Source: a virus (taxonomy: Duplodnaviria; Caudoviricetes). Taken from it: a DNA stretch of 64,000 nt. Under the pieces are notes generated by a model. That model had not been told where the DNA came from and did not search any database. It saw only the letters and a program-made list of their open reading frames with translations. The stretch spans positions 96,001 through 160,000 of the IMG/VR virus record IMGVR_UViG_3300033076_001145, one strand, 5' to 3'. The stretch's first letter is position 1. Each line of letters opens with the position of its first letter. A program made the position numbers and the translations under genes. Positions 6,034 through 63,355 of this stretch are shown piece after piece.

Positions 6034-6363
6034 ATGAAATACATAATCAAAGAATCACAAATAAATAATGTTGTATTTTGGTATTTGGATAATCAGGATT
6101 TTATTAAGATTGAAAGGAGTCGTAATATTTATTTTGTTAATTCAGAAGGGGATGAATATGCTCAAATAAGACTTGATAAAGATGATGGCTGGTGTTTTAT
6201 TAATATTAATTTAATTAGAGAAATTTCTTCTTTCTTTTCTTTACAACCTTATGATTCTAAAGAAGTTATCGGCAGATGGGTTGATAATACCCTCCGAATG
6301 AAGGTCACAAACACCCAATATTCAAGAGGTAAAGGCCAGAAAAGGTTGATAATACCCAAATAA
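6034..6363 (+). CDS. Family B small protein (LDNQDF...YAQIR...WVxNTLxMKVTNT) with spacer-encoded tail
   Basis: Paralog of 6379, 56395, 58889, 59643, 62716, 63026. Confidence 0.8.
   Translation: MKYIIKESQINNVVFWYLDNQDFIKIERSRNIYFVNSEGDEYAQIRLDKDDGWCFININLIREISSFFSLQPYDSKEVIGRWVDNTLRMKVTNTQYSRGKGQKRLIIPK
6280..6363. CRISPR. CRISPR-like mini-array: 36-bp repeat 6280-6315, 29-bp spacer, truncated repeat from 6345
   Basis: GTTGATAATACCCTCCGAATGAAGGTCACAAACACC - spacer - GTTGATAATACCC. Confidence 0.7.
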
Positions 6364-6365
6364 CA

Positions 6366-6373
6366 TATTTATA
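6366..6373 (+). promoter_or_regulatory. Recurrent phage motif TATTTATA a few nt upstream of ATG (putative phage-specific/late promoter)
   Basis: Also at 6713-6720, 14324-14331, 24064-24071 (+) and 663-670, 59243-59250, 59554-59561, 63016-63023 (-). Confidence 0.6.
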
Positions 6374-6378
6374 ATAAT

Positions 6379-6696
6379 ATGAAATATCTAATTAAAGAGT
6401 CACAAATAAATAATGTTGTATTTTGGTATTTGGATAATCAGGATTTTATTCAGATTAATAAAGGTAATAAGATATATTTTGTTAATTCGGAGGGTGACGA
6501 ATATGCTCAAATTAGATATGATAAATCAGATGGCTGGTGTTTTATTAATATTAATTTAATTAATGAAATTTCTTCTTTCTTTTCTTTGCAACGCTCTGAT
6601 TCTGAAAAAATTATTGGTAAGTGGGTTGAGAATACCCTCCAAATGAAGGTCACAAACACCGCTTTGTTTGAAAAGTTGTATGATGATTTTGGTTGA
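6379..6696 (+). CDS. Family B small protein with spacer-encoded tail
   Basis: Tandem near-duplicate of 6034..6363. Confidence 0.8.
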   Translation: MKYLIKESQINNVVFWYLDNQDFIQINKGNKIYFVNSEGDEYAQIRYDKSDGWCFININLINEISSFFSLQRSDSEKIIGKWVENTLQMKVTNTALFEKLYDDFG

Positions 6697-6710
6697 GAAT
6701 ACCCAAATAA
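6625..6710. CRISPR. CRISPR-like mini-array: repeat 6625-6660, 31-bp spacer, truncated repeat from 6692
   Basis: GTTGAGAATACCCTCCAAATGAAGGTCACAAACACC is the exact reverse complement of the repeats at 59612 and 59679. Confidence 0.75.
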
Positions 6711-6725
6711 CATATTTATAATAAT

Positions 6726-7100
6726 ATGAAATACATAATCAAAGAATCACAAATTAATTTACTATCTGAGATTGAAAGAAATTGGATGGAAAAAGAATAT
6801 GAAGAAGGGTATAATGACATTAAAGAAATTTTGACATCATTTATTACAGGATTGTTTGATTCGTATGGTGAAATAGGTAATGAGATTGTTATTTATGATG
6901 AAGATAAGGAAGTAATATTTAGTTATATGAAACCAAGTGGTGAGTTATATTACGATTATAGTTTGAATGATTTATACAGTAAGTTATTTCCCCACCCGTT
7001 TTGGTCCGTCCATTCTAAATATGCAATGTCTGATGCGTTTGAACAATCATTCCCATATAAAGTCAATCGAGTAAAAGGTGCTCATATTGTATATCAATGA
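6726..7100 (+). CDS. Hypothetical protein with MKYIIKESQ leader
   Basis: Same upstream sequence and first 10 codons as 6034, different body. Confidence 0.7.
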   Translation: MKYIIKESQINLLSEIERNWMEKEYEEGYNDIKEILTSFITGLFDSYGEIGNEIVIYDEDKEVIFSYMKPSGELYYDYSLNDLYSKLFPHPFWSVHSKYAMSDAFEQSFPYKVNRVKGAHIVYQ

Positions 7101-7390
7101 ACGAAGAAATGAAAAATATGATATGGAGTTATTTGGATAGTCAGGACTTTCATACCATTGATTATAATGGTAATATCATATTCTTTGAATCGTATGAAAG
7201 TTATAATTCTCGTATTCAAAGTGTTTTAATTAGTATCCACCGCCAAAGTAATGAATGTTATGTTAAACCAAAACTACTTAAAGAAATTGAGTCTTATTTC
7301 AATATCGGATGGGATGAGTCATTACCCTATGTTGGAAGCTGGGTTGTAAATAAAGTCGGATTTAATATCAAAAAATTCTATTTTGATTAA
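7097..7390 (+). CDS. Family B paralog without array
   Basis: YLDSQDF...EIESYF...WVVNKVGFNI. Confidence 0.65.
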   Translation: MNEEMKNMIWSYLDSQDFHTIDYNGNIIFFESYESYNSRIQSVLISIHRQSNECYVKPKLLKEIESYFNIGWDESLPYVGSWVVNKVGFNIKKFYFD

Positions 7391-7396
7391 TAACTT

Positions 7397-8059
7397 CTAT
7401 CTTATGTCGTAGAAGTGTTTTACATTTCTTTTTGAATAACGGTCATTTAAAAAATCCCATAGTTGATTAAATCTGTTTTCATCATCACCACATTCTAATT
7501 CAAAGTTTTCACATACATCTTCTATTAAGTTTGATGTGACAAGATGATTAAATTTATATGGTGTCATTGCATTTAATTGTTTTTTCTTATCTGTGTATCT
7601 TTTTGAAGCCACCTTTAAAACATATTGATATATCTGTTCAAGAGTTTCCATATCTATCCTTCTTTTGAAGTAAATAGGTAGTTCTTTTTCTTCCCTCAAT
7701 ACTGATTCATTAATTACATTTCCCAAATTATCATATTTTAAAAGTTCAGTTTCTATAAAAACATCAGCATTTTTTTTCCTCACATCCCATTCAGTCATCC
7801 AAGTAGGACAAACAACAATATTTCCTGAAGTCCATTTATCAATATCTCTTGATATTTTTGTATCAAACCACGACTCAATGTTTGCCGCAGTATCATCAGA
7901 ATCAAAATAAATTTTAAGTAAAGGTTTATTATTATAAGTTGATTGTTCTATAAATGAAACCTCATCATATAAAACATGAATAATTTGCTTAACAAATTTT
8001 AATTTGTGTCCCTCGGATTCTTCCCTTAATATTCTTCTTATGTTTTCTTGTAGGTTCAT
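7397..8059 (-). CDS. MNLQE.IRRILREE-leader protein
   Basis: Leader shared with 8077, 8771, 9112, 11724, 12418; start inferred at MNLQEN. Confidence 0.65.
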   Translation of the reverse strand: MNLQENIRRILREESEGHKLKFVKQIIHVLYDEVSFIEQSTYNNKPLLKIYFDSDDTAANIESWFDTKISRDIDKWTSGNIVVCPTWMTEWDVRKKNADVFIETELLKYDNLGNVINESVLREEKELPIYFKRRIDMETLEQIYQYVLKVASKRYTDKKKQLNAMTPYKFNHLVTSNLIEDVCENFELECGDDENRFNQLWDFLNDRYSKRNVKHFYDIR

Positions 8060-8076
8060 ATTTCTTCTTCTTTGTA

Positions 8077-8769
8077 TTAACAATCTCCTATACTAACATC
8101 TATAGTATGTCCCCTCACTAAATTATTTCCTAATCTGTGTATAAGGGTGCTTATGTTATATATCGCTTGTCTTGTTTTTTGTTTGTTCACAAAACTATCA
8201 TCAGATAAATTAGGATAATATTTTGGTATTTCCACATATAGTTTTAACGAATGTAGAGTTGGTTTAATTTTAAAATCACATATATTTTCCATATCAGGAA
8301 CATCGAGTCTCATTATTGTATCAACAATGAAAATCATTTCCTTTTGTGTTCCAGTAAAACCAAGAACCTTATATAAATTTTCAACCCCTCCAAACATTTT
8401 TGCGGTTTGGTAAATACCCATATCAGAAACCAAATCTTTAATACTTTCTTGGTCTGAGGTCTCTTCCCTTAATATTGACTCATTTAACGGTTCCTCGTCC
8501 AATTTTGAATTTATGTATTTAATTAATGGCGCATCAAATTTATATACATCTTGGGACATGTTGTAATCTTTTAACAGTTCTTTGTTTGACGAAATAAGAT
8601 TTTGAATTGCGTCATAAAAGGCTTCACTTCTATTCTTTCCCCAACTTAAAGAAATTTTAACATCCCTAACCAACCGCTCAAGTTCATTAGCGGTCACCCT
8701 TCTTCTAATGTAATAAGGTAGTTCAGTTCCTTCCCTTAATATTCTTCTTATGGATTCTTGTAGGTTCAT
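8077..8769 (-). CDS. MNLQESIRRILREG-leader protein
   Basis: Leader plus internal repeat 'NESILREE'. Confidence 0.65.
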   Translation of the reverse strand: MNLQESIRRILREGTELPYYIRRRVTANELERLVRDVKISLSWGKNRSEAFYDAIQNLISSNKELLKDYNMSQDVYKFDAPLIKYINSKLDEEPLNESILREETSDQESIKDLVSDMGIYQTAKMFGGVENLYKVLGFTGTQKEMIFIVDTIMRLDVPDMENICDFKIKPTLHSLKLYVEIPKYYPNLSDDSFVNKQKTRQAIYNISTLIHRLGNNLVRGHTIDVSIGDC

Positions 8770-8770
8770 A

Positions 8771-9115
8771 TTATGTATTTGACACTAATTTTTTATATCT
8801 ACTTTTAATTCTATCTTTATAGTAATCTTTTAAACTTTCCATAACCTCACCATACCATTGTGAATCTTCTGGCATTGTACTATATAGTTCGTAATGAATC
8901 CCATCCATTAAAATTGAAATTGTTACATCTATAAACCTATTTAAACTCATAATACTCCCATCTTCTTTATTTGTATTGCGTAACATATTTGATGACATAT
9001 CTAAAGACTCGCTAAACTCCCTCTCTAAATCATTGTTAGGGACTCTACGTCTAATCATCAGGATAGGTTTGGACTCTTCCCTTAGTATTCTTCTTATGGA
9101 TTCTTGCAGGTTCAT
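8771..9115 (-). CDS. MNLQESIRRILREE-leader protein
   Basis: Leader; RRR motif shared with neighbours. Confidence 0.65.
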   Translation of the reverse strand: MNLQESIRRILREESKPILMIRRRVPNNDLEREFSESLDMSSNMLRNTNKEDGSIMSLNRFIDVTISILMDGIHYELYSTMPEDSQWYGEVMESLKDYYKDRIKSRYKKLVSNT

Positions 9116-9369
9116 TTCTTTTTCTTCTTAACACAATTAGGATATTTCTTACCAAACATTGTCTTCATTCCTTTTTGGGTATATCCCGCCCAACACTTTT
9201 CTTGGAGTTCAGATTTATGATTTTCATTTCCACATTTATGACATGTGTATGGGTCGTGTCCGCCTTCAGATAAATTCCAAGACCATCCACACTCCTGACA
9301 AACAATTTTTTTATTTTTGTTATGTAATTCTTCCAATATTATTCTTCTTATGGTCTGTTGTAAATTCAT
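9112..9369 (-). CDS. Small Cys-rich protein (CxxC..CxxC zinc ribbon plus KCWxGY...PNCV motif)
   Basis: CQEC/CHKC; start at MNLQQ after TATTTATA. Confidence 0.6.
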   Translation of the reverse strand: MNLQQTIRRIILEELHNKNKKIVCQECGWSWNLSEGGHDPYTCHKCGNENHKSELQEKCWAGYTQKGMKTMFGKKYPNCVKKKKK

Positions 9370-9430
9370 ATTATTATAAATATCAATTAAAATAAACTGA
9401 AAAAAGTTTTTCAATTTAAGTTTTCTTCCC

Positions 9431-9438: not shown

Positions 9439-9442
9439 CCTT

Positions 9443-10228
9443 ATGGACAAAGTATTAAAAGATTTCATATTCCAACAACTATATGAAGAATTGAGTAATG
9501 TGGAGATTATTCCATATAACTACTCCATTTGGTTTATTGACCGAAAAAACGAATATTGGTATTTTGAATTTGAAAAGGATGGAATGTTGTGGTGGAGATA
9601 TGGATTCTTTCTCAGTTTTTTTAAAGTGTTCTCCCTTAGTGATACCGATTTTGAACCCATTCTATCCGCTTGGGTGGAAGAGGTCTTAAATCATAAGGTA
9701 TCTACAACAGGTCGGGAGAAACCAAGGCAACTTTTTCTGGTGGAAGAGGTCCTAAATCATAAGGTATCTACAACCCAAACTTGTTCATATGGTTTGCCTG
9801 AGTGGGTGGAAGAGGTCTTAAATCATAAGGTATCTACAACCCACAATTGCCACGATATTCTACCAGCAGTGGTGGAAGAGGTCCTAAATCATAAGGTATC
9901 TGCAACTCGGCATTTTGACAACCGTTCTCATCCGTTGGTGGAAGAGGTCTTAAATCATAAGGTATCTACAACTTCTCTGAATTCAGGCCAAATGATTGGT
10001 ATGGTGGAAGAGGTATTAAATCATAAGGTATCTACAACCCAAGTCAGGGAGAACAAAGAATCGGTCATGGTGGAAGAGGTCCTAAATTATAAGGTATCAA
10101 CAACTGAGGACCGCATTTCTCAAAACCCAAGGAAGGTGGAAGAGGTCTTAAATCATAAGGTATCCTCAACCTACTTCGATTGGGATAAAAAGGTAATTTT
10201 GGTGGAAGAGGTATTAAAACAAAAATAA
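9443..10228 (+). CDS. Family A protein: ~80-aa domain followed by 22-aa units (VEEVLNHKVSTT + 10 variable aa) encoded by an in-frame CRISPR-like array
   Basis: ORF stays open through 8 repeat-spacer units. Confidence 0.8.
   Translation: MDKVLKDFIFQQLYEELSNVEIIPYNYSIWFIDRKNEYWYFEFEKDGMLWWRYGFFLSFFKVFSLSDTDFEPILSAWVEEVLNHKVSTTGREKPRQLFLVEEVLNHKVSTTQTCSYGLPEWVEEVLNHKVSTTHNCHDILPAVVEEVLNHKVSATRHFDNRSHPLVEEVLNHKVSTTSLNSGQMIGMVEEVLNHKVSTTQVRENKESVMVEEVLNYKVSTTEDRISQNPRKVEEVLNHKVSSTYFDWDKKVILVEEVLKQK
9673..10228. CRISPR. CRISPR-like array A1: 8 full 36-bp repeats plus truncated 9th; 8 unique 30-bp spacers
   Basis: GGTGGAAGAGGTCTTAAATCATAAGGTATCTACAAC at 9673, 9739, 9805, 9871, 9937, 10003, 10069, 10135; partial at 10201; exact 66-bp period. 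Confidence 0.85.
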
Positions 10229-10229: not shown

Positions 10230-11081
10230 ATGGATAAAATATTAAAAGATTTTATATATCAACAACTATACGAAGAATTGAGTAATGTGGAGATAATTCC
10301 ACATAAGGATTCCATTTGGTTTATTGACCGAGAAAATGAGTATTGGTATTTTGAATTTGATAAGTCAGGAACATTATGGTGGAGATATCATTTCTTTACC
10401 TCGTTTTTTGAGATGTTCTCTATGAAACGCAATGAGTTTACACCCATTCTGTCCGATTGGGTGGAAGAGGTCCTAAATTATAAGGTATCTACAACGACCT
10501 TGATTAGCAAAGGATGCACGGACGAGGTGGAAGAGGTCCTAAATCATAAGGTAACTACAACAAATTTACATACGACACCTGTCCCTGGTAAGGTGGAAGA
10601 GGTCTTAAATCATAAGGTATCCACAACTTTGTCAGCCAATCTCTTGGCACCTTTAATGGTGGAAGAGGTCCTAAATCATAAGGTATCTACAACACGCTGT
10701 ACGGTAATTTATACAACTTCGCTGGTGGAAGAGGTCTTAAATCATAAGGTATCCACATCCAACGCCAAAGAAATTTTACAAAAGCAAACGGTGGAGGATG
10801 TCCTAAATCATAAGGTATCTACAACAATGGCCATCCAATCTTGCAAAGAGAATTGGGTGGAAGAGGTCTTAAATCATAAGGTAATAGAAACCCAAACAGG
10901 GAACGCACCTCCATTGTCATTTGTGAAGGATGTTTTAGATTATAAAGTAACCAAAACTAAAAGAGATTCATCAGTTGATTGGGTTAATGTGGAAGAGATA
11001 TTAACTCATAAGGTATCCTCAACACAAGGATGGGGAGTTGAGGATTGTCACTTGGTTGGGAAGATATTAAATCAAAAATAA
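10230..11081 (+). CDS. Family A protein with in-frame array
   Basis: Tandem paralog of 9443; open through 9 units. Confidence 0.8.
   Translation: MDKILKDFIYQQLYEELSNVEIIPHKDSIWFIDRENEYWYFEFDKSGTLWWRYHFFTSFFEMFSMKRNEFTPILSDWVEEVLNYKVSTTTLISKGCTDEVEEVLNHKVTTTNLHTTPVPGKVEEVLNHKVSTTLSANLLAPLMVEEVLNHKVSTTRCTVIYTTSLVEEVLNHKVSTSNAKEILQKQTVEDVLNHKVSTTMAIQSCKENWVEEVLNHKVIETQTGNAPPLSFVKDVLDYKVTKTKRDSSVDWVNVEEILTHKVSSTQGWGVEDCHLVGKILNQK
10460..11081. CRISPR. CRISPR-like array A2: 9 repeats plus truncated 10th; 9 unique 30-bp spacers; degenerate distal end
   Basis: Repeats at 10460, 10526, 10592, 10658, 10724, 10790, 10856, 10922 (degenerate), 10988; partial at 11054. Confidence 0.85.
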
Positions 11082-11082: not shown

Positions 11083-11718
11083 ATGGATAAAATATTAAAA
11101 GATTTTATATATCAACAATTATACGAGGAGTTATCAAATGTGGAAATTATTCATCATGGTAAATCAATATGGTTTATTGATAGGGATAATAAATACTGGT
11201 ACTTTGAGCTTGACACATTTAGTAACACTTTATGGTGGAGGTATGATTTCTTTGTATCGTTTTTCAAGGTATTTTCAATGGATAATGAAAAATTCACTCC
11301 AATTATTGCAAATTGGGTTGCAAATATATTAAGTGGTGATTTTGAAGTGTCGAAAAAAGGTTCGGAATTAATTGATGAGGATGGTGTTATAAATAATATT
11401 CTAAATAATAATGGAGTTACTCTTATACCAGCAAATGATGGTATATTTAATAACAGTAGAGCGGAAATTGTAATCAAATCGGAACCTGCAAGTAGGGATT
11501 GGAAGATAGGTGAAGTATTAAAAACTATATCTAAAACCTCACCTCCTTGGGCCTCTCTTATGGTTAATCAAATATTAAAATCCTCATCATCAGTTACTGT
11601 AAATAAAGTATCCAGCTTAGGGAGTTTCCGACAACAATATCATGTGGATGAGGTATTAAAAACAAAATCGTTGTCATACTATCCTGATAGTGTAATAGAT
11701 TCGGTATTAAATAAATAA
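11083..11718 (+). CDS. Family A protein with eroded repeat tail
   Basis: Same N-domain; tail has relics IGEVLKT, MVNQILK, NKVSS, HVDEVLKTK, VIDSVLNK. Confidence 0.7.
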   Translation: MDKILKDFIYQQLYEELSNVEIIHHGKSIWFIDRDNKYWYFELDTFSNTLWWRYDFFVSFFKVFSMDNEKFTPIIANWVANILSGDFEVSKKGSELIDEDGVINNILNNNGVTLIPANDGIFNNSRAEIVIKSEPASRDWKIGEVLKTISKTSPPWASLMVNQILKSSSSVTVNKVSSLGSFRQQYHVDEVLKTKSLSYYPDSVIDSVLNK

Positions 11719-11723: not shown

Positions 11724-12050
11724 TTAACGACATTCCCTCTGATAAGTATTCTTTAAGTGCTCGGTGAATTTTTTACTAGCATAATCCACCATTAACTTAT
11801 AAGACTCTCCCCACTCAACAGTATTTTCATCCATATCGGAGAAGAAGTCCCAATACATAGATGTTATGGCTTTTTCAATTACCGTTTCAACATATTGTTC
11901 CTTTGACAATCCACAAACATTATATTGAACTTTAACTTCTTTAATTGCAAAATCAATCTGCCAATCAATTGCGTGTAGTCTTCTTTTAACACTATTTGGG
12001 ACCTCTGTTGATTCTTTTAATACTCTCTTTATGGATTCTCTGAGTTTCAT
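11724..12050 (-). CDS. MKLRESIKRVLKES-leader protein
   Basis: Leader motif; TATTTATA upstream. Confidence 0.6.
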   Translation of the reverse strand: MKLRESIKRVLKESTEVPNSVKRRLHAIDWQIDFAIKEVKVQYNVCGLSKEQYVETVIEKAITSMYWDFFSDMDENTVEWGESYKLMVDYASKKFTEHLKNTYQRECR

Positions 12051-12082: not shown

Positions 12083-12421
12083 ATGAAGGATGACAATCAA
12101 TTAGAGGAACTTGTATTTGCATATCTTAATGCTCAGGACTTTGAAATTATCCATAAAGAAGGTTATCATAAATACGCATACTTTGTTTATGACAAGGATG
12201 ACGCTCACGCTCAGATAATGTATCACAAAACCTTTGTTGTGATTTCTAAAGAGTTGTCGGATGAAATTAATTCTTATTTCAATGTTCCTTCAGGTGATAA
12301 CGCATCAGTTGAAATTAAAAATTGGATTGAGTCAAAGTTAAACACTAAAATTGATATTTGGGATGTTAAAATATATGGTGGAATGATGGGCGATGCCTGG
12401 TTATCTGTTAATGAGGATTAA
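12083..12421 (+). CDS. Family B paralog without recognisable array
   Basis: YLNAQDF...HAQIMY...EINSYF...WIESKL. Confidence 0.65.
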   Translation: MKDDNQLEELVFAYLNAQDFEIIHKEGYHKYAYFVYDKDDAHAQIMYHKTFVVISKELSDEINSYFNVPSGDNASVEIKNWIESKLNTKIDIWDVKIYGGMMGDAWLSVNED

Positions 12422-13135
12422 AATATCATATCTTCATCCATTTTATCCTGAATATCTTGTTGAGCAATAGGTAATAGTTCATTCATAATGATGTCATATA
12501 CACCTGGTAAATAAACTTCATCATACCAACTAAACAACTCTTCAACACTATCAAATCTTGTTTTGTCTTGTAACACTTTGAAATAGTCTCCTTCCCCAGC
12601 GATTTCAACAACTACCTGTTTACCAATTTTTCTACTTCTATCCTCCAAAGAAAACCAATCAATTTCAACAGGTGTATAATCAAGTCCATCCCAAAATGGT
12701 GTGGCCATTGCCGTAATAAGTTCAGTATAATTAGGGAGAAATTCTCCCGTTTTAATCTCACCATCCCAATAAAAAATACCATCCAAATTTGTTTGTATAT
12801 TAAATTCATTGTAGGTATCTTTCAATTTACCTTTTTCTAAATTTTCAATTAATAATTCGTTCGCAATTTTTGAATTGATTTCAATTTTTGAAAGTTTGAC
12901 TAATTGTGTCGTACTAACACCAAGGTATTTTTTTGCTTCATATATACCAACCTCGTCAATTAGTTCAAGAATAGAATTTTGAAATTTATCTTCAGAATCT
13001 TCTCTTAATATTTTTCTTATGTTATCCCTTAGATTCATATCATTATAAATACCACTTAAAATGAAAACCCCACTGAGTAGCGAATTCAATGGGGTTAATG
13101 TAGCCTAAACTACAGCGGTCCTAAGCCCACTTTCT

Positions 13136-15433: not shown

Positions 15434-15835
15434 ATGATAGATGAAATTGTTAAACAGTCAATATTTAATTTATTATTTGATGACATGGATGGTGCTGAGG
15501 TCATTGACTTAGGTAAATCCATTTGGGTAATTAATAAAGAAACAAGGTATTGGTATTTCGAATATCAAACCGACACCAAAAATCTTTGGTGGAGATATGA
15601 CTTTTTCTTATCATATTTAACACCATTTGGTATGAATGAGGTTTGGTATCACATTATATTCTCCGAGTTCTTTAATTACTTCCTAAATCAAAAACAATTT
15701 AATTCGGCTGAGGTTAAAAAACTATGTGAAGGTGACTTTGTTTCGATATTGGAGATGGACCAAGTGTTATCTGATGATAGAGAACTACAAATCAAAATGA
15801 AACAAATTATAGATGAAAAAAGGTCAGATGTCTGA
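15434..15835 (+). CDS. Family A paralog without array
   Basis: GKSIWVI.KETRYWYFEY...LWWRYDFF matches 11083 ORF. Confidence 0.7.
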   Translation: MIDEIVKQSIFNLLFDDMDGAEVIDLGKSIWVINKETRYWYFEYQTDTKNLWWRYDFFLSYLTPFGMNEVWYHIIFSEFFNYFLNQKQFNSAEVKKLCEGDFVSILEMDQVLSDDRELQIKMKQIIDEKRSDV

Positions 15836-37088: not shown

Positions 37089-37696
37089 TCTTTGTCCTCC
37101 TCTTTTTTCTCAATACTCACTCGACTCTTCCATTCTTTTTTATCTTTCATTTTAGAATCATTAAGTCTTTTAACTTTCATTTCATTTCTAAATTGCCAAA
37201 ACGCCTCTTCACTTAAACCATACTTAGATATAAATGCTTGGTATTTTCTATATTCTTTATCAGTCATTCTTACCATAGTGATACCAAAATCATTTGTGGT
37301 CATATAATAGTGTGATAAATCCATCACATATACTGTGCTATCATCAGGATATAATGTATAAAGAATTGACGGTCCTAAAGCCCATGTCCATATACTGTCA
37401 TATATATCCTCATTACATACCCATTTCTGTAAAAGAAGATTTGACAAACTATCAATATATGCATTTTGTTCAGCAAGAACTAATGTCATCTTATTAATTT
37501 GTTCCTCATATTCCTTAGTCTTTTTATTACTTTCTTTTATTGATTTTGATGTCCTATCTAACATCTCATTAATCTTTTCAGATTGCTCAATTGTAAGAAT
37601 AATTACTGAGTCCCCTTTGAATATTGTTTTAATTGGGTATTGACCATACCCAAAAAAAGACATCACTATAAAACAGATTAGTAGTAATTTTTTCAT
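37085..37696 (-). CDS. Secreted coiled-coil protein between the two kinases
   Basis: Sec signal (FGYG/Q), translationally coupled to both neighbours. Confidence 0.65.
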   Translation of the reverse strand: MKKLLLICFIVMSFFGYGQYPIKTIFKGDSVIILTIEQSEKINEMLDRTSKSIKESNKKTKEYEEQINKMTLVLAEQNAYIDSLSNLLLQKWVCNEDIYDSIWTWALGPSILYTLYPDDSTVYVMDLSHYYMTTNDFGITMVRMTDKEYRKYQAFISKYGLSEEAFWQFRNEMKVKRLNDSKMKDKKEWKSRVSIEKKEEDKE

Positions 37697-38913
37697 TTGT
37701 ATTTAATTTTCATTTTAGTTCCAATTTCATTTTTCTCACAGGTGATTTTGAATCCGTGTTCTTCTAATATTGCCACACAAATATTTAATCCTAATCCAGA
37801 ACCACTTTCTTTTTGCCCTTCTTTTCTAACATATGGTTTAGACAGATGGTCAAAATCTTCCTGAGTTATACCTCTACCGTTATCCTGTATGAAGATTGTG
37901 TCACCTTCTGAATATATCTTTACGAACTTTGTCGCCGAGTCATTATACTTTAAACCATTTCTAATTAGATTATCCACTGCGGTGCAGAATAATGGTTCAT
38001 TAACTTCAATTGTTGGGAGGTTATCTTCTAATACGACCTGGCTAACATATGCGGTAGATGATAAGTAATCCGAAAGGATTCCCTTAATACTACATTCTTC
38101 TTTATTTAAAACCACATCTTTCTTAACTAAATTAGTGAATTCATAAACACCTCTATAAACTTTCTGAGAATGTTTAAGACCTTCCTTAATCATTTTGAGT
38201 GGGGCTTCAATTTTAAGATTGACAATATCATCGTGAGTTAATCTTCTCTCTAATGAGTTAACTCCTCTTGGCATATAGGTATTAATACCTGAATGCATGT
38301 CGTGTCTTAATATCTTGGCAGCATGTTCCAAGTATGTATTCTTTCTTTCAAGTTCATTAGACTTTTCAATAATTTCAGTAATGTCTTGTCTAATTGATGA
38401 AAATCCTTCTAATTTACCATTAGCGTCAAATCTTGCCCTGATATAAGTATCAACATAATATAAACTACCGTCTTTAGCCTTATTACATACTACATCATTC
38501 CACACCTCACCTTTCAATACCGTAGAATACATTTTACCCCAATATCCATCGGGTTGTGTTCCAGAATTAACTATTGAGTGGTCTTTACCAATTACTTCTT
38601 CAAGTTTCCATCCTGAAACTTTTTCAAACTTTTCATTAACATATGTTATTCTACCTTTAGCATCGGTAATAGAAACAATCGCCGCTTTATCTATAAATTT
38701 ATCAGTTTCATCTAATTTTTTATCCTGAATTTTAGATTTTTCTTGTATTATTTTTGAAAGTATTGGGATGAGTAATAAAAGACAAACATACTCAGTTCCT
38801 CTGGTGATTTTTGTTGATTGAATAAATTCTAACAAAACTGATGTCTTAACAACAAAAAAGACAATCATTATGTTAATCGCAAAAAGTAAATAGATTTTTG
38901 TATTTTTTGTCAT
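37693..38913 (-). CDS. PAS/PAC sensor histidine kinase
   Basis: Two TMs, PAS (ITD.KG.ITYVN.KF..VSG..LEEVIGK), RHDMH, NLIRNG, DNGRG, GSGLGL. Confidence 0.9.
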   Translation of the reverse strand: MTKNTKIYLLFAINIMIVFFVVKTSVLLEFIQSTKITRGTEYVCLLLLIPILSKIIQEKSKIQDKKLDETDKFIDKAAIVSITDAKGRITYVNEKFEKVSGWKLEEVIGKDHSIVNSGTQPDGYWGKMYSTVLKGEVWNDVVCNKAKDGSLYYVDTYIRARFDANGKLEGFSSIRQDITEIIEKSNELERKNTYLEHAAKILRHDMHSGINTYMPRGVNSLERRLTHDDIVNLKIEAPLKMIKEGLKHSQKVYRGVYEFTNLVKKDVVLNKEECSIKGILSDYLSSTAYVSQVVLEDNLPTIEVNEPLFCTAVDNLIRNGLKYNDSATKFVKIYSEGDTIFIQDNGRGITQEDFDHLSKPYVRKEGQKESGSGLGLNICVAILEEHGFKITCEKNEIGTKMKIKYK

Positions 38914-55439: not shown

Positions 55440-55994
55440 TTAATTCAACCATTTTCTAACAGTATTGTCAGTAACTCCGAACTTTCGTGCGACTGAACTA
55501 TAACCTTCGTTAGCCACCATTTCAAATATAACTGATTTTTCCGGTCTGTCAACCTTTCTTCTTGATTTGTGAGCACATTCTTTACATTTATTCCCCCACT
55601 TACTTATCTCACATCCACAATCAGAGCAGTTATATTTTTTTGGTTCAGCTAAAGTAATCCATTTATCACTCTTTTCCAAATCATATTTTTCAATTTTTTT
55701 ACTAACATTTTCAATCATTAAGTCAGGAGAATGAACTTCTCTGTGACAATTTGCACACAAAACCATACATTTTTCAAATTCAGACATAATCCACTCCATA
55801 TTTGAATTAGATAGTGTTCTTGAATCTAATTGACTTTCTTTTGTATCTTTATCAATGTGGTGGAATTCTAAAGCCGCTAAATTTTTATTATATCCACAAA
55901 TTTCACATCCACCTCCTTTTAAATTAATTAAATGAGTTTTTCTCTTCAAAGACCTCATTACCTGATATTCATAAGTGTTCCCTTGTTTTCTCAT
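55440..55994 (-). CDS. HNH endonuclease with zinc-ribbon and HTH C-terminus
   Basis: CEICGY...LEFHH...LCANCHREVH; CSDC...CKEC; YSSVARKFGVTDNTVRKW. Confidence 0.85.
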   Translation of the reverse strand: MRKQGNTYEYQVMRSLKRKTHLINLKGGGCEICGYNKNLAALEFHHIDKDTKESQLDSRTLSNSNMEWIMSEFEKCMVLCANCHREVHSPDLMIENVSKKIEKYDLEKSDKWITLAEPKKYNCSDCGCEISKWGNKCKECAHKSRRKVDRPEKSVIFEMVANEGYSSVARKFGVTDNTVRKWLN

Positions 55995-56394
55995 AACCTA
56001 ACCTTTAACTATAAATATATGAATATGTTCATAAATCTATATAATCAAATAAAAAACCCCTCATTTTTGGTGAGGGGTTCATATTATTTTTAATACCTAT
56101 CAAATATATGTATCCTCAATCCCCTCAATAAATCGTAACAATCGTTGTCTTTCACCTTCAGTTAATTCCCCATCACTTTCGATTTCTTCTCTTAACATTT
56201 CCAAACTCTGTAATGAACTTTGAATACATCCTGCCAATTCGTCATCAACATTTTGAATGTATTTACCATACATTTCATAGTTAGACTTTTCCCCTTCAGA
56301 GATTACTTTATTCACAATCTTTATTAATTCAGTTTCAGTAAGTTTTATTGTTTTACTCATAATAAAATAAATATCATGTAAAATAAAAAAACCC

Positions 56395-56802
56395 TCACTT
56401 GGATGGTAGTCTCAACCTTCCTTCAAAAGGGTTAATGTAAAATTTGATATTTGTAACTTTCTTTTTGAGGGTGTGCTCAACCCATTTACCAATAAATTCT
56501 TTAGAGTCATTGTGTCCCATAGAATAGAAAGAAGAAATTTCTTTGATTAAACCATCACCGATAAAACACGAACCGTCGTCTTTATCATATCTAATTTGAG
56601 CATATTTGTCACTTTTTGAATTGACAAAATAAATTCTATTTTTTTCTTTAATCTGAATGAAGTCCTGATTGTTTAAGTATTCAAATACTGAATTATCTAA
56701 TTCTGACTCTGACTGAGGAATTGTGTCTCCACCACCTTTTTTAATAATTCTTTTTACTAGACTTAGTAAATCTGATTCTGTCAATCTAATTACCTTTTTC
56801 AT
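56395..56802 (-). CDS. Family B protein with MKKVIRLTESDL leader and spacer-encoded tail
   Basis: YLNNQDF...YAQIRYDKDDG...WVEHTLKKKVTNI-KFYINPFEG-RLRLPSK. Confidence 0.75.
   Translation of the reverse strand: MKKVIRLTESDLLSLVKRIIKKGGGDTIPQSESELDNSVFEYLNNQDFIQIKEKNRIYFVNSKSDKYAQIRYDKDDGSCFIGDGLIKEISSFYSMGHNDSKEFIGKWVEHTLKKKVTNIKFYINPFEGRLRLPSK
56399..56481. CRISPR. Degenerate mini-array: partial repeat ending 56416, 29-bp spacer, repeat 56446-56481
   Basis: GGATGGTAGTCTCAAC ... GATATTTGTAACTTTCTTTTTGAGGGTGTGCTCAAC. Confidence 0.55.
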
Positions 56803-56859: not shown

Positions 56860-57873
56860 TTATTTTACAATCTTCGTGGTATATAATTTACCTGAGTCAT
56901 CATTAATTAGAATGACATAGGTTCCCTGACTTAGATTTTCGGAATTAATTGTCATCATGTTTGTTGTGTATTTGTTTTGATAAACACATCGTCCATCAAC
57001 TGACATAATCTTAATGTTTCCGTTATTAGATGGTGTAACCACATTAATATTATCCATCACAGGATTTGGACATACCTTAACATTATTGGTCATTGTTTCT
57101 TCAACACCAACAGTATAACTATCAACAACACTCAATGTCCATTCAGTCATAATACCACCAGGATACCAACCTGTTGAGTCAATGGTGAATGTTAAACAAG
57201 TATCAGCAAAACATCCATCAAATGAATAAGCCCATACACAGATTTGATATGTTCCAACACCTCCATAAGTTGTTGTTGGGAATGCAACATTTGCTGAGTC
57301 ACCATTACCAAAATTCCAAGTATATCCAATGCAGTTTGAAGATTGGTTAATCAAAAAGATTACATTATCTTCGATTACAACTGAATCAGAAGAAACAAAA
57401 GACATATCCAAGTATGGGGTCGTTTCAAGTTGTCCGTCACAGTTATTATCAATACCATCACACATTTCCCATGCTCCGGGATATGTATTTGGGTTAAAAG
57501 CATCACAATCATATTCATCATTCCAACCATCATTATCACTATCAATACCAGTAACCAAATCAATTGAGTATTCATTAACTGCTCCGAAGATAACAATACC
57601 ACCATCGCATTGGGTCATCCCAACACAATTGGTCGCACATAGATTAACATAAACACTATTACCAACCACAGGAACCGATGTTGTGTAAACACCTGATGGG
57701 TCGGAAGTAAAAACCAATTCACCTGTTGTTTGGTTTAAGGAGTCAATATACATACCTGTAACGGTATATGGACAATTTGTATCACCAATAACGGTCAAGT
57801 TAATTGGGAATTGAGAAAACACATTAAGTGTTAGGATGCTCATAAGAGCGAAAAGAAAAGTTTTTAGTTTCAT
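56860..57873 (-). CDS. Secreted protein with MopE-like metal-binding motif, PKD domain and T9SS type A C-terminal sorting domain
   Basis: Signal peptide; D.DNDG..DCD...YPGA.E.CDGIDNNCDG; YTWNFGNG; V.PNPV.D.I.V...DGR.V...L..GTY.I...KIVK. Confidence 0.8.
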   Translation of the reverse strand: MKLKTFLFALMSILTLNVFSQFPINLTVIGDTNCPYTVTGMYIDSLNQTTGELVFTSDPSGVYTTSVPVVGNSVYVNLCATNCVGMTQCDGGIVIFGAVNEYSIDLVTGIDSDNDGWNDEYDCDAFNPNTYPGAWEMCDGIDNNCDGQLETTPYLDMSFVSSDSVVIEDNVIFLINQSSNCIGYTWNFGNGDSANVAFPTTTYGGVGTYQICVWAYSFDGCFADTCLTFTIDSTGWYPGGIMTEWTLSVVDSYTVGVEETMTNNVKVCPNPVMDNINVVTPSNNGNIKIMSVDGRCVYQNKYTTNMMTINSENLSQGTYVILINDDSGKLYTTKIVK

Positions 57874-58888: not shown

Positions 58889-59239
58889 TTATAAGGTAAT
58901 TTGTTTTTGTGTAAAGATTAATTGGGGGGTATTCTCAACCATCAGCTCCTTTGTTGGAAATGATATCGGGGTATTTGTAACCTTCATTTGGGTGGTATTC
59001 TCAACCCATCGTCCAATAACTTTTTCAGAATCAGAGCGTTGTAAAGAAAAGTAGGAATAAATTTCGTTAGTTAAATTAAAATCAATAAAACACCAACCAT
59101 CATCTTTATCAAATCTTATTCGAGCGTATTTATCATTCTCTGAATTTACAAAACAAATTTTATCATTACCCATATCAATCTGAATGAAGTCCTGACTATC
59201 CAAATAAGAAAATATTACTCTTTCTAAATGTTTGTCCAT
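58889..59239 (-). CDS. Family B protein with 30-bp in-frame spacer
   Basis: WVENTTQMKVTNT-PISFPTKELM-VENTP. Confidence 0.75.
   Translation of the reverse strand: MDKHLERVIFSYLDSQDFIQIDMGNDKICFVNSENDKYARIRFDKDDGWCFIDFNLTNEIYSYFSLQRSDSEKVIGRWVENTTQMKVTNTPISFPTKELMVENTPQLIFTQKQITL
58921..59005. CRISPR. Mini-array: partial repeat ending 58939, 30-bp spacer, repeat 58970-59005
   Basis: GGGGGTATTCTCAAC ... GGTATTTGTAACCTTCATTTGGGTGGTATTCTCAAC. Confidence 0.7.
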
Positions 59240-59253: not shown

Positions 59254-59550
59254 TTAATAACCAACAATTGGACTAGCAACCTCCACATTAATAGATTCAA
59301 TTCCGAGTTTATCTTCAATCCATTTATTGATTACACTAATGGAATCCCCATAATCTAAAGAAAAGAATTTGCTGACTTCTTCGGCCAAATCATAGTGTAT
59401 TGTGCACCATCGGTCTTTTGGGAGGTATTTAATCTGAGCAAATTCATCATCTTCTGAATTAACAAAATATATCCTATACTTCATTTTAATTACAACAAAG
59501 TCCTGTCCATCCAAATAAGAAAATATTACTCGTTCTAAATGTTTGTCCAT
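59254..59550 (-). CDS. Family B paralog without recognisable array
   Basis: MDKHLERVIFSYLDGQDF...WIEDKL. Confidence 0.7.
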   Translation of the reverse strand: MDKHLERVIFSYLDGQDFVVIKMKYRIYFVNSEDDEFAQIKYLPKDRWCTIHYDLAEEVSKFFSLDYGDSISVINKWIEDKLGIESINVEVASPIVGY

Positions 59551-59570: not shown

Positions 59571-59714
59571 GGTATTCTCAACAGAGCAGTGGAAACGTTT
59601 TCAGAACTATAGGTGTTTGTGACCTTCATTTGGAGGGTATTCTCAACAAGAGATGAATAGCGAATACCTTCCCGCTTGGGTGTTTGTGACCTTCATTTGG
59701 AGGGTATTCTCAAC
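59571..59714. CRISPR. Mini-array: two identical 36-bp repeats (59612-59647, 59679-59714), partial repeat ending 59582, spacers of 29 and 31 bp
   Basis: GGTGTTTGTGACCTTCATTTGGAGGGTATTCTCAAC x2. Confidence 0.85.
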
Positions 59715-59951
59715 CCATTTACCAATAACTTGTTCAGAATCAGAGCTTTGCAAAGAAAAGAAAGAAGAAATTTCTTTAACTAAATTAGTATGAATAAAAC
59801 ACCATCCATCATCTTCGTCATATCTAATTTGAGCGTATTCGTCACCTTCTGAACTAACAAAAAAAATTTTATCATTACCCATATCAATCTGAATGAAGTC
59901 TTGGCTATCCAAATAAGAAAATATTACTCGTTCTAAATCTTTGTCCATCAT
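59643..59951 (-). CDS. Family B protein with spacer-encoded tail
   Basis: WVENTLQMKVTNT-QAGRYSLFISC*; stop lies within the next repeat. Confidence 0.8.
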   Translation of the reverse strand: MMDKDLERVIFSYLDSQDFIQIDMGNDKIFFVSSEGDEYAQIRYDEDDGWCFIHTNLVKEISSFFSLQSSDSEQVIGKWVENTLQMKVTNTQAGRYSLFISC

Positions 59952-60466
59952 AACTTAATCCCAGTATTATATATGGTTTCCCAATTATTTTTCTCACAAT
60001 AATCCAAAAAGTCCTTTGGTGAATATCTATATGACTCCTCAATCCCATATACCCATGAAACAAACTCAGAGCAATACATCTTATCCTGTTCATGGTTCAA
60101 TGGTTTTTTATTCCACTTACCAGTTAATAATTCAATCGGTTGTTTGATAATTAATCCCTCAAAGTCATAAGCCGTTAATCCAACTTTGCTCATGGCTTTA
60201 ACCGCAATTTTCTTTTCAGCAATTACCTTTGGTCTTCTTTGGATGATGAAGTTATATTGGTATTCTTTAAGCCAGTTTTCAAATGGTTTAACATTAACTC
60301 CATTATCCTGAGCATCAATGATATATGGTTCACCCCATATCCAAATGAAAAGAGCTGTGTGATTTATTTCAGACTTTGTTGCCCATCTTATGGCTCTACT
60401 CAACCAACTTTTTCCACGACAATGTAACACATCACCGGTTTTTAATTCATCTATATTCAAACTCAT
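59948..60466 (-). CDS. Permuted papain-like NlpC/P60 (YaeF/YiiX-like) amidase
   Basis: LKTGDVL, NHTAL, G..YDF, MYCSEFV. Confidence 0.8.
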   Translation of the reverse strand: MSLNIDELKTGDVLHCRGKSWLSRAIRWATKSEINHTALFIWIWGEPYIIDAQDNGVNVKPFENWLKEYQYNFIIQRRPKVIAEKKIAVKAMSKVGLTAYDFEGLIIKQPIELLTGKWNKKPLNHEQDKMYCSEFVSWVYGIEESYRYSPKDFLDYCEKNNWETIYNTGIKL

Positions 60467-60548
60467 AATGATAAATATTGGAATATATAATAAAAAAGTC
60501 TTTCCATTTATTCAAACATAATATATTTATTTATTAAACAATTAAATT

Positions 60549-61160: not shown

Positions 61161-61166
61161 GATTAA

Positions 61167-61520
61167 TTAGAAACTCTTTTTCCACTTTAATAAGTAGAGA
61201 CCTCTTTCTTTGTTGAGAGGTTCAAAACTTATTCTAAAGTTGTCGTTTAACTGAGCATAAACAGGATAAATTGGAAATTTCCATCCTTCGGTTTCTATAT
61301 GGAATCCCGCCATTCCAACAGGACTATTTTTAATTTTATCTATAAAACTTTTTGGAGTCTCCTCTTTACCGAAATTAACTTTAAGTTGGGTTTTAAAATC
61401 GTCAGGGATTTGAATAGTTGAAATTTTATTAATAGGTCCCTTATCAGTTATTTGTTCTTCAATAACTCGTTTAACAATCTTAACCAAATCTGATTCTGTC
61501 AATTTAATAACCTTTTTCAT
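61167..61520 (-). CDS. MKKVIKLTESDL-leader protein
   Basis: Shared leader; start inferred. Confidence 0.6.
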   Translation of the reverse strand: MKKVIKLTESDLVKIVKRVIEEQITDKGPINKISTIQIPDDFKTQLKVNFGKEETPKSFIDKIKNSPVGMAGFHIETEGWKFPIYPVYAQLNDNFRISFEPLNKERGLYLLKWKKSF

Positions 61521-61589
61521 ATTAAATAAATATATCAATGTTTTTCTTTTTTATTCCATAAATTTTATATCTTAGCCAAAATTATAACA

Positions 61590-62255
61590 ATGGAACTAAA
61601 CTATCCCAACTTAACGGAAGACCAAAAATCAAAGATTGACAAGTTCGTTTCTGACTTGGAAAAGAAATGTGCTGAAAACAATGTTGAGTTGTTTCTTCCC
61701 AACACACCTGGCGTTCAATACCCAGGTTTGGACACCCAAACCAATGGTTATTTTGATTCAAGAAAACCACTTCTTGCTTGTGCAACAGGTAAGGAACTTG
61801 ATAAGTGGTTGTTAATCTTAATTCACGAGTCATCACATATGGACCAGTTTTTAGAAAAGGTTTCAGTATTTGATGAGTCAATTGGATTAGATGAAACATT
61901 TCAATGGATTGGTGGTCTTGAAACTCCTGACTTTGACAAGATTGATAGAGAAATCACATCAGGTATTGCCGTTGAGGTTGATTGTGAGAAAAGAACCGTT
62001 GAGAAGATTAAAGAATACGGATTGGAGTTTGTGGTTGGGATTGATGAATACATTCAAAAATCAAACGCATATGCTCTCTTTTACCTATGGATGAGAAAGA
62101 ACAGAAGTTGGTATAAGATTGGATTTGAGCCATACAATGTTAAATCCATTTATTCCAAGATGCCAAAAACATTTGATGTTGATTATTCAACATTGACAGA
62201 AGATATGACTGAAGCATTTGACGAGTTGTTAGTAATGTCGGATGGGGTTAAATAA
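61590..62255 (+). CDS. HExxH metallopeptidase-like protein
   Basis: LIHESSHMDQ and downstream E.DCE. Confidence 0.6.
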   Translation: MELNYPNLTEDQKSKIDKFVSDLEKKCAENNVELFLPNTPGVQYPGLDTQTNGYFDSRKPLLACATGKELDKWLLILIHESSHMDQFLEKVSVFDESIGLDETFQWIGGLETPDFDKIDREITSGIAVEVDCEKRTVEKIKEYGLEFVVGIDEYIQKSNAYALFYLWMRKNRSWYKIGFEPYNVKSIYSKMPKTFDVDYSTLTEDMTEAFDELLVMSDGVK

Positions 62256-62302
62256 AAAACCCCATCCTTTAGGGATAGGGTAAATCTCTTTTTTAGATTT
62301 GA

Positions 62303-62656
62303 TTACTTGGTGTAAGTTCTTAGACAATGTGCCGCCCAAGCCGCCGCTCCAAGAAAGATTGGCATCAATAGACCTGCTCCACCGAACATTGCAATATGAA
62401 CCGCAACCGCTCCTGACATTACAGATGAAAGAACCAACGCTCCATAAACAGATGTTCTTGGGATACAAAGGGCAATTACACCAGCAACTTCCATAACTCC
62501 AACAAGTGCCATGTAAGGTAACATGTTCATTGCAGTAAAGTTAGTGGTCATAGCCTCGCTTCCCATAATCTTTGACAATCCGCCCATTCCGAGCATAAAG
62601 GTTACGATTACTGTAAGCAACCAACCTAAGTTTTTAAGTGTTAAATAATTTTTCAT
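62303..62656 (-). CDS. DoxX-family membrane protein
   Basis: Four TMs, G..K, G..E..G, P.T...GA, GA.A.H. Confidence 0.8.
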   Translation of the reverse strand: MKNYLTLKNLGWLLTVIVTFMLGMGGLSKIMGSEAMTTNFTAMNMLPYMALVGVMEVAGVIALCIPRTSVYGALVLSSVMSGAVAVHIAMFGGAGLLMPIFLGAAAWAAHCLRTYTK

Positions 62657-62700
62657 ATTCCAAGTATAGGATATGAACTTTACAATGTCAATTGATTTTT

Positions 62701-62787
62701 ATTTGGAGGGTATTATCAACGGATTGAAAAATTGCCTTTGCTCAATGCCATGGTGTTTGTGACCTTCATTTGTAAGGTATTCTCAAC
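62701..62787. CRISPR. Mini-array: partial repeat 62701-62720, 31-bp spacer, repeat 62752-62787
   Basis: ATTTGGAGGGTATTATCAAC ... GGTGTTTGTGACCTTCATTTGTAAGGTATTCTCAAC. Confidence 0.75.
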
Positions 62788-63012
62788 CCACCTACTGATA
62801 ACTTGTTCAGAATCAGAGCGTTGCAAAGAAAAGTAATAAGAAATTTCTTTAATTAAATCCAAACCAATATAACACAAACCATCATCATATCTAATTTGAG
62901 CAAATTCATCATTCTCTGAATAGGCAAAATAGATACTATCATATTTTTTAATCTGAATAAAGTCCTGACTATCCAAATAAGAAAATAATACTCTTTCAAA
63001 ATCTTTGTACAT
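62716..63012 (-). CDS. Family B protein with spacer-encoded tail
   Basis: WVENTLQMKVTNT-MALSKGNFSIR*. Confidence 0.8.
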   Translation of the reverse strand: MYKDFERVLFSYLDSQDFIQIKKYDSIYFAYSENDEFAQIRYDDGLCYIGLDLIKEISYYFSLQRSDSEQVISRWVENTLQMKVTNTMALSKGNFSIR

Positions 63013-63025
63013 GATTATAAATATA

Positions 63026-63109
63026 TTAGTTGGGTATTCTCAACCACTTGTCAATATTCATATACGCATCGGTGGTTTTTGTAACTTTCATTTTTAAGGT
63101 ATTCTCAAC
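63026..63109. CRISPR. Mini-array: partial repeat ending 63044, 29-bp spacer, repeat 63074-63109
   Basis: GGGTATTCTCAAC ... GGTTTTTGTAACTTTCATTTTTAAGGTATTCTCAAC. Confidence 0.65.
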
Positions 63110-63355
63110 CCACCTACTGATGACTCTTTGGGATTCGTCTCGTCCTAAATTAAAGAAAGAAGAAATTTCTCTATTTAAATCGATATTAATAAAACAAACA
63201 CCTCTATCTTCATCATATCTAATTTGAGCAAGGTCGTCACTTTCTGAATTAATAAAGAATAAACTTGTGTCATTACCTGTAATAATAAAATCCTGATTGT
63301 CAAGATACTTAAATATTACTTTATCAAATTGTGATTCGGTTATAAGGTATTTCAT
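63026..63355 (-). CDS. Family B protein (MKYLITESQ leader) with spacer-encoded tail
   Basis: WVENTLKMKVTKT-TDAYMNIDK-WLRIPN*. Confidence 0.8.
   Translation of the reverse strand: MKYLITESQFDKVIFKYLDNQDFIITGNDTSLFFINSESDDLAQIRYDEDRGVCFINIDLNREISSFFNLGRDESQRVISRWVENTLKMKVTKTTDAYMNIDKWLRIPN

Follow-up and report, generated by a model that had tools for sequence, protein, structure and literature searches.

Small genes of a lake jumbo phage that end in translated, CRISPR-like arrays of host-derived spacers

The stretch of DNA considered here (the window) comprises 64,000 nucleotides (nt), from base 96001 to base 160000 of a linear virus record of 208.6 kb (IMGVR_UViG_3300033076_001145, labelled G000) that is about 71% complete and has a guanine-plus-cytosine (GC) content of 32%. 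The record carries head genes of T4 type, with PHROG matches to a major head protein, a head maturation protease and a portal. Our subject is a dispersed set of small genes, in two families termed A and B, whose 3' ends consist of repeats and spacers arranged like those of a CRISPR array, and in which spacers are translated as part of the protein. Relatives were gathered as 68 IMG/VR loci, together with 324 representatives of clusters for family B and, for family A, 1159 proteins. The module is real and widespread within one group of lake jumbo phages.

A preliminary description of this DNA had listed seven B genes ending in a 36-nt repeat, a spacer of 29-31 nt and a truncated repeat, and the layout is found at all seven. 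Two of them lie on the plus strand. The gene at 6034..6363 has its repeat at 6280-6315, a 29-nt spacer at 6316-6344 and a truncated repeat from 6345; its protein closes with a frameshifted tail of 15 residues, and the same repeat-spacer unit is also present in locus L001. The gene at 6379..6704 (stop at 6696) has its repeat at 6625-6660, a 31-nt spacer at 6661-6691 and a truncated repeat at 6692-6704. On the minus strand, the gene at 56392..56802 ends in a degenerate repeat (56446-56481), a 29-nt spacer (56417-56445) and a partial repeat from 56416, and the gene at 58889..59239 in a repeat (58970-59005), a 30-nt spacer that is read through in frame (58940-58969) and a partial repeat from 58939. 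The gene at 62702..63012 (gene 62716, after its stop) carries a repeat at 62752-62787, a 31-nt spacer at 62721-62751 and a partial repeat at 62702-62720; the gene at 63026..63355 carries a repeat at 63074-63109, a 29-nt spacer at 63045-63073, of which drifted copies occur in L010, L032 and L094, and a truncated repeat at 63032-63044. An N-terminal tag, to which we return below, is present in the genes at 6034, 6379, 56392 and 63026. The seventh gene, at 59571..59951 on the minus strand (gene 59643, after its stop), does end in repeat and spacer, but it has two full repeats and two spacers instead of one of each: a repeat at 59679-59714 with a 31-nt spacer at 59648-59678, followed by a repeat at 59612-59647, a 29-nt and now untranslated spacer at 59583-59611, and a truncated repeat at 59571-59582.

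The repeat quoted in the preliminary description is recognisable at all seven genes, but its letters are a consensus and not the sequence of every copy, the mismatches numbering 0 at 6625 and 59679, 2 at 6280 and 62752, 4 at 58970, 6 at 63074 and 8 at 56446. The reported identity of the copy at 6625 to copies about 53 kb away is exact (6625-6660 equals both 59679-59714 and 59612-59647); these three are the only identical repeats, the others differing at 2-8 positions. Following an invariant Trp, the full B repeat stands in codon register and specifies the protein domain's last helix and strand, and the truncated repeat that follows the spacer represents the first 12-25 nt of the repeat.

Family A is represented by two longer arrays on the plus strand. 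The gene at 9443..10228 consists of a domain, eight full repeats from 9673 at 66-nt spacing, eight in-frame spacers and a truncated last repeat from 10201, and the gene at 10230..11081 of a domain, nine repeats from 10460 that are increasingly decayed towards the 3' end, nine in-frame spacers and a degenerate last repeat. In both genes the repeats measure 36 nt and the spacers exactly 30 nt, read as 12 fixed and 10 variable residues. Of 347 repeat spacings in A proteins, 295 measure 22 residues, and most of the others are multiples of 22. Some divergent A lineages (L058, L059, L063, P0158) have other repeat peptides and decaying arrays of up to 403 residues; there the repeat drifts while the 22-residue period is kept.

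The two families had been proposed to be two lineages of one module of gene plus integration site, and three lines of evidence agree with this. The A and B domains are homologous (HHalign probability 96.7%, E 4e-10); they fall on separate branches with a support of 99 in a quick tree of which only the A/B split was used; and their repeats are oppositely oriented. Counted from the Trp codon, the A repeat begins one base earlier than that of B; in reverse complement it has the same two ends (GTTG, CACC) as the B repeat, which means that a near-palindromic repeat is used in opposite orientations by the two families.

Growth, translation and origin of the spacers

Comparison among relatives reveals how the arrays are built. 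Downstream of an intact B repeat, a second repeat starts 64-68 nt further on in all 28 homologous genes, and in none of the 72 genes without the repeat. Orthologous A arrays have their distal spacers in common and in the same order, whereas their domain-proximal spacers differ; internal deletions occur, and the distal repeats decay. In family B, the L094 ortholog of gene 62716 has the same repeat variant and terminal repeat, with one extra spacer between the domain and the spacer seen in the window, and L096 and L098 share only the distal spacer. Judged from the sequences, the extra L094 spacer could be either a gain in L094 or a loss in gene 62716. Arrays of both families thus grow in the manner of CRISPR arrays, at the junction with the domain, and they turn over while the domains stay nearly identical. 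Since some cassettes recur at other positions or in paralogs, recombination also shuffles them.

Translation acts as a filter on the spacers. Among 68 distinct A spacers, gathered by their DNA repeat (arrays reached via long proteins, L219-L226, were excluded from this count), none contains an in-frame stop, while each of the other five frames has stops in 19-41 of the 68; because random host 30-mers are free of stops only 64% of the time, the probability of this outcome is about 1e-13. The first spacers of B genes that shift the frame (28, 29, 31 or 32 nt) likewise lack in-frame stops (0/31, P 4e-6). First B spacers are skewed to lengths of 29 and 31 nt, and those that keep the frame often stop at codons 5-10 (7 of 12), from which we conclude that a B protein closes with a single tail and tends not to run on into the next repeat. 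Two B genes are exceptions to the single tail (L094:3517 and L097:116), each with a stop-free spacer of 30 or 33 nt that reads into the second repeat in the style of family A. Later B spacers, now untranslated, are nearly free of stops as well (1/19 with a stop, P 0.005), which fits each of them having once adjoined the domain. The stop-codon filter in both families thus supports one of the two possibilities raised in the preliminary description, that each copy receives a different C-terminal peptide. Selection after capture can be gauged from spacers shared between A arrays: one set shows 14 synonymous against 10 nonsynonymous changes, a crude ratio of 0.22 in which transition bias is ignored, and another shows 10 synonymous changes where a substitution-matched null predicts 5.8 (P 0.03, ratio about 0.4).

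The spacers originate in host DNA. Their GC content is 42%, compared with 41% in sampled host DNA and 32% in the phage. No match was found in G000 or related phage loci outside the arrays, nor among INPHARED phages or, for the one spacer searched there, in IMG/VR, and no spacer was traced to a phage. When the arrays of a relative were compared with 301 Flavobacteriales genomes, matches were found in few genomes, each spanning exactly one spacer and reaching 30/30. The matched genomes belong to one genus (27 genomes, 1.6-2.8 Mb). In total, five window spacers, and roughly a dozen from relatives, were traced to ordinary Flavobacteriales chromosomal genes, nearly all in this genus, and whole-spacer matches include 30/30, 29/30 and 29/29. 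Within the window, the second spacer of gene 59643 (59583-59611) is found exactly, antisense to a gene, in two genomes of the host genus. In the A gene at 9443, spacer 9973-10002 matches a host gene at 28/30, antisense, and spacer 10105-10134 matches at 29/30, also antisense, in a relative outside the host genus; in the A gene at 10230, spacer 10760-10789 matches a MutS-like gene at 26/30, in frame, in eight genomes of the host genus. The spacer of the gene at 6034 (6316-6344) matches a host-genus gene at 25/29, which we take from its sequence to be GlmS-like. By the same kind of reading, the source genes presumably encode SecA, MutS, a Leu/Glu dehydrogenase, an isoprenyl transferase, GlmS, a fucosidase, a peptidase and a transporter.

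The protein tails thus lead back to host DNA and do not align by descent; like the spacing of the second repeat, this is the opposite of what would have refuted the preliminary description. Thirteen A protospacers divide into seven sense and six antisense, and only three of the 13 are in the frame of the host gene, which rules out mimicry of host proteins as the rule. No conserved base, and hence no protospacer-adjacent motif (PAM), was seen within 12 nt on either side of these 13, a small sample drawn from relatives of the host. The preliminary description had looked to Flavobacterium as a setting for experiments; that genus has not emerged as the host, and the spacers point to a small-genome genus of the same order. 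The Brumimicrobium family was considered and ruled out as host, no spacer match among 301 genomes of that family being better than 3-4 mismatches. By analogy, an exclusively host origin of the traced spacers would suit a T4-like phage that degrades the host chromosome. The spacers also reveal the host of an uncultured group of jumbo phages.

Domain, paralogs and genomic setting

The B protein of the gene at 6379 is modelled with a predicted local distance difference test (pLDDT) score of 92: a helix is followed by four strands and then by two helices, and of the closing strand (residues 93-97) three residues are encoded by the spacer. For A, only the domain is modelled with confidence, and repeats 2-3 score below 50. 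Searches of Pfam, PHROGs and Rfam returned nothing above cut-off for the module, and INPHARED held no homolog of the domain. With the B model, the best Foldseek hit in the PDB had an E-value of 0.26 and VIA gave a best Z of 4.6 with none reaching 5, which does not of itself make the fold new; near matches in BFVD and Atlas were only to uncharacterised proteins of uncultured phages. Atlas feature matches for A did not exceed 0.80 and were not used.

Array-less paralogs accompany both families and differ from either repeat at 15 or more positions. Those of B type lie at 7097..7390 (plus strand; hidden Markov model (HMM) E 4e-33), 12083..12421 (plus; E 1e-30), 59254..59550 (minus) and 63368..63685 (minus), and a further one outside the window at G000:184568-184897 (E 4e-14). 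Of A type are a gene at 15434..15835 (plus), which joins the A alignment with clear identity, and, as an addition to the earlier list, one at 11083..11718 (plus) with a long tail in which no repeat is recognisable. The earlier listing thus stands for 7097, 12083, 59254, 63368 and 15434, but the gene at 1145..1483 (minus) is at most a possible distant paralog, missed by both HMMs and matched by HHalign at a probability of 4-9% (E 0.004-0.011).

Upstream elements hint at when the genes are expressed. The A gene at 9443 is preceded by a promoter element of Bacteroidota, that is host, type. Most B genes have a TATTTAT motif upstream, as do roughly one in five phage genes, some of them beside structural genes. 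The same motif after the truncated B repeats, being the reverse complement of the T4 late promoter, was considered as a driver of antisense CRISPR RNA and rejected, because TATTTAT mostly stands 11-13 nt before gene starts (55 of 270), in sense orientation, and most of these genes have no array. An N-terminal tag ending in Glu is found in 86 of 146 B relatives and in none of 120 A relatives. In T4, internal proteins are packaged by means of an N-terminal tag that the prohead protease trims, and diverse counter-defence proteins are among them (PMC3012670, PMC9958956). From these sequence features we infer that A may act early in the cytoplasm, and B late, with part of it packaged in the capsid.

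Unrelated small genes of the window also combine Glu-ending N-terminal tags with an upstream TATTTAT (6726-7100, 7397-9414, 11724-12050, 12418-13089, 56100-56360 and 61167-61538), so that the tagged small genes may form a large set of capsid-targeted proteins. Among the B genes lie a permuted papain-like C92 amidase and an HNH-like protein (59948-60466 and 55440-55994). Elsewhere, 56860-57873 is a phage gene with a MopE-type metal-binding motif, a PKD domain and a Bacteroidota type IX secretion sorting domain, a paralog of which begins near G000:161880, and 35760-38913 is a histidine-kinase-like gene (HATPase_c) that shares a 277-nt repeat with a paralog about 1.9 kb away.

The integrase and the competing explanations

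No Cas1, Cas4 or reverse transcriptase (RVT_1) was detected in five phage records, three of them complete, and one of the complete three, G556, carries a four-spacer B array. The Cas1 searches used TIGR03639 and TIGR00287, PF01867 having missed Cas1 in five Bacteroidota genomes. Cas2 was not found in G000, and host Cas1, Cas2 and Cas9 used as queries match nothing there. In the host genus, genome G378 (locus L171) carries type II-C cas9, cas1 and cas2 with an array of 29-30-nt spacers and a 47-nt repeat, whose start matches the B repeat at 8 of 9 nt and whose end is the same 7 nt as in B; its leader junction, TTG-GGTG, is that of family A, where it is partly forced by the Trp codon. Repeats of 35-36 nt stand beside II-C cas1 elsewhere in the host family, whereas no 36-nt array with the phage-repeat ends was found in the 27 host-genus genomes. 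In their core the phage repeats are similar to those of type VI-B, matching the repeats of L069 and L073 at 26/36 (B) and 23/36 (A), a likeness partly forced because the search pattern fixed the first 19 nt; the L073 gene is Cas13b, and the phage repeat forms the same central hairpin as VI-B repeats. In Flavobacterium columnare, II-C Cas1-Cas2 fills in trans a VI-B array that lacks its own Cas1 and has 36-nt repeats, and it was left open how species with longer II-C repeats fill 36-nt arrays (PMC8092290). Among the integrases considered, host type II-C Cas1-Cas2 is the likeliest, as we infer from these likenesses.

Several further arrays came to light in these searches. Bergeyella and Riemerella (L072, L074, L075) have VI-B arrays with extra units about 118 nt apart in which only the first 19 nt of the repeat are kept, a truncation like that of the B units. 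A two-copy VI-B-like repeat in Sphingobacterium (L070:6649-6729) has no cas13b-sized open reading frame (ORF) within 8 kb. An 8.5-kb IMG/VR contig (L213) carries an array of 30 units whose 47-nt repeats end, as the host-genus repeat does, in CACC.

We think it probable that the phage borrows a host spacer integrase to diversify its own proteins, the protein being the selected product, and likely also, if with slightly more reserve, that the host's CRISPR adaptation integrase was recruited twice as a generator of protein diversity, in opposite repeat orientation. The last helix and strand of a domain of about 90 residues would be encoded by DNA that doubles as a CRISPR repeat. During infection of Flavobacteriales, the integrase (most likely host II-C Cas1-Cas2) would insert host fragments of 29-31 nt at the junction of domain and repeat, duplicating the repeat, and the protein would be rewritten with every insertion. 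Of the inserts in family A, only 30-mers free of stops would survive, which builds up a chain of 12 fixed and 10 variable residues; family B would retain mostly 29- or 31-mers, with one new C-terminal tail that a frameshift in the next repeat brings to an end, while older spacers would be pushed out of the gene and then lost. Deletion and recombination between repeats would reshuffle the cassettes. Host fragments taken in random frame and strand would thus supply a near-random peptide library on a stable scaffold, and the peptides would probably bind or jam host proteins, in counter-defence or takeover, being beneficial and not merely tolerated.

A number of findings weigh against this explanation. 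The sole host-genus repeat seen is 47 nt long, not 36; cas1 occurs in only one of the 27 host-genus genomes, which are mostly incomplete; B grows at the repeat end that, in the host as in A, is the leader-distal one; and the 13 protospacers show no PAM, whereas F. columnare II-C acquisition uses one. Moreover, Pfam, PHROG and PDB offer neither a function nor a fold match for the domain, purifying selection on the spacers is modest once transitions are allowed for, and the peptides are near the random composition of host DNA, with a mild loss of L, I and C and gain of G, H, D and Y, which fits tolerance as well as benefit. Some of the same findings could speak for a different enzyme. Protein diversification might proceed as described with an unrecognised phage integrase in place of host Cas1-Cas2: cas1 is rare in the sampled host genus, the repeat length, B orientation and absent PAM misfit the one host system seen, and the phage proteome is mostly unannotated in a record about 71% complete. 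We give this little credence, given that the geometry of 36 and 30 nt and the repeat ends are common to host II-C and VI-B arrays, and that neither the complete relatives nor G000 yielded the homologs sought above.

The arrays might instead serve without their peptides. The preliminary description had also suggested a small protein paired with its own guide RNA, and phage mini-arrays loaded by host Cas13b or Cas9 could in principle cut or silence host genes, the open frame protecting the transcript. The VI-B-like repeats next to cas13b and the shared hairpin would suit this, as would the cas-less arrays with host-matching spacers that huge phages carry (PMC7162821). The sequences nonetheless lend guide RNAs no apparent support, with neither strand bias nor PAM among the protospacers and no effector found: G000, as far as it is complete, has no ORF above 932 residues, and cas13b was found in none of 151 host-family genomes in a search that had no positive control. 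The targets would be unrelated housekeeping genes, the B repeats are antisense to the transcript for use by Cas13b, drift favours synonymous sites of the phage frame, and transcription of a 30-nt tail needs no open frame. We therefore hold guide RNAs to be unlikely. Quite unlikely, too, is a decoy function, in which host Cas1-Cas2 is absorbed by the many integration sites, with the result that fewer anti-phage spacers enter the host's own array, and the frame is kept only for survival of the gene. Nine sites per genome, kept across many phages, near-random peptides and sites that mimic host repeat ends would fit a decoy; but a decoy need not sit in a gene, no captured spacer is phage-derived, and A keeps all its distal spacers in frame although a short tail like that of B would leave the domain whole. 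That array-less paralogs encode a similar helix and strand, and again that the peptides are near-random, might even suggest a neutral accident, a repeat-like coding sequence being hit off-target occasionally and harmless insertions persisting. Such an accident is highly improbable in view of 1159 A-type proteins, an A repeat conserved at many wobble positions, two lineages that use the repeat in opposite orientations, and arrays that turn over on nearly identical domains.

Comparison with known systems

If diversification of phage proteins by a borrowed host integrase is the correct explanation, the module would be a peptide-display library that occurs in nature and would open a way to coding sequence de novo; as an instance of DNA turned out of frame into coding sequence, it would be both dated and traceable. 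To our knowledge, every described use of CRISPR spacers is as RNA guides. Spacer capture read out as protein would add a class of diversity generator beside diversity-generating retroelements and shufflons, and if integration can be rebuilt, it would offer an in vivo writer of in-frame peptide libraries. The phage sites are also natural substrates for the rules of repeat length and polarity, and they bear on the question left by PMC8092290, here in the form of II-C Cas1-Cas2 with a 47-nt repeat filling 36-nt arrays. Our literature search, in which coverage of subscription journals was thin, found no report of a translated CRISPR array or of this layout, and translated arrays go unmentioned in a review from 2024 on CRISPR in mobile elements (PMC11656645). 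This looks like an undescribed route to new, nearly random peptide tails on a protein.

The phage arrays share with CRISPR arrays in general the repeats of constant length, the unique spacers of near-constant length, the polarised addition at one end with a decayed repeat at the other, and the copying of spacers from foreign DNA, here the host chromosome and at up to 30/30. They differ in having no non-coding, AT-rich leader; the growing end adjoins the domain's Trp codon, and the spacers are filtered by frame. Among the closest known systems is the Cas1-less VI-B array of F. columnare (Hoikkala et al. 2021, PMC8092290), with which they have in common a 36-nt repeat, spacers of about 30 nt, polarised growth, a lack of cas1 of their own, a similar repeat core and a possible capture of the host's own DNA. 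The phage array, however, lies in a gene, is translated, and has a coding leader, no Cas13b, no PAM seen and, in B, an inverted orientation. Type VI-B systems at large have a similar 36-nt hairpin repeat and 30-nt spacers, but their bias towards spacers complementary to mRNA is absent here (seven sense, six antisense), and type II-C systems keep cas9, cas1 and cas2 at the array, genes that none of the phage records contains and that host-genus G378 does.

Viruses are known to carry arrays of their own. The compact cas-less arrays described from huge phages (Al-Shayeb et al. 2020, PMC7162821) are likewise short arrays of jumbo phages without acquisition genes and with some host-matching spacers; the consulted part of that report describes them as non-coding guides and reports no translation filter, whereas the module here is translated. 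Viral mini-arrays, Racrs and crlRNAs (PMC11656645; PMC10651486; bioRxiv 10.1101/2024.10.29.618823) resemble it in being viral, in having one or two spacers and in relying on host Cas proteins, yet their repeats are identical to the host's, they are aimed at related viruses or at cas promoters or have no spacers, and they act as RNA. Here only the ends match the 47-nt host repeat, and all traced spacers are bacterial where those of mini-arrays are mostly directed against related viruses. A Racr or crlRNA is a solitary spacerless repeat, or has a spacer against cas or toxin promoters, while the present spacers come from inside housekeeping genes. The internal proteins of T4, such as IPI (PMC3012670, PMC9958956), share the T4-type head with its maturation protease, the diversity of small proteins and the Glu-ending tag; there is no match in sequence or fold, the diversity of IPI does not come from spacer capture, and packaging is here only predicted.

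Two further systems are comparable in output or in layout. Diversity-generating retroelements likewise provide the constant scaffold of a phage gene product with a hypervariable C-terminal peptide, by means of a reverse transcriptase, a template repeat and adenine-specific change. The variable tail of the phage module is similar, but no RVT_1 match was found in the five records and the variation consists of whole foreign cassettes. TIGR-Tas has 36-nt units that hold two short spacers, whereas the phage unit measures 65-67 nt and holds one spacer of 29-31 nt. On the features compared, the array is built and grows like CRISPR and works like a diversity-generating element, but it falls outside VI-B and II-C systems, mini-arrays, Racrs, diversity-generating retroelements and TIGR.

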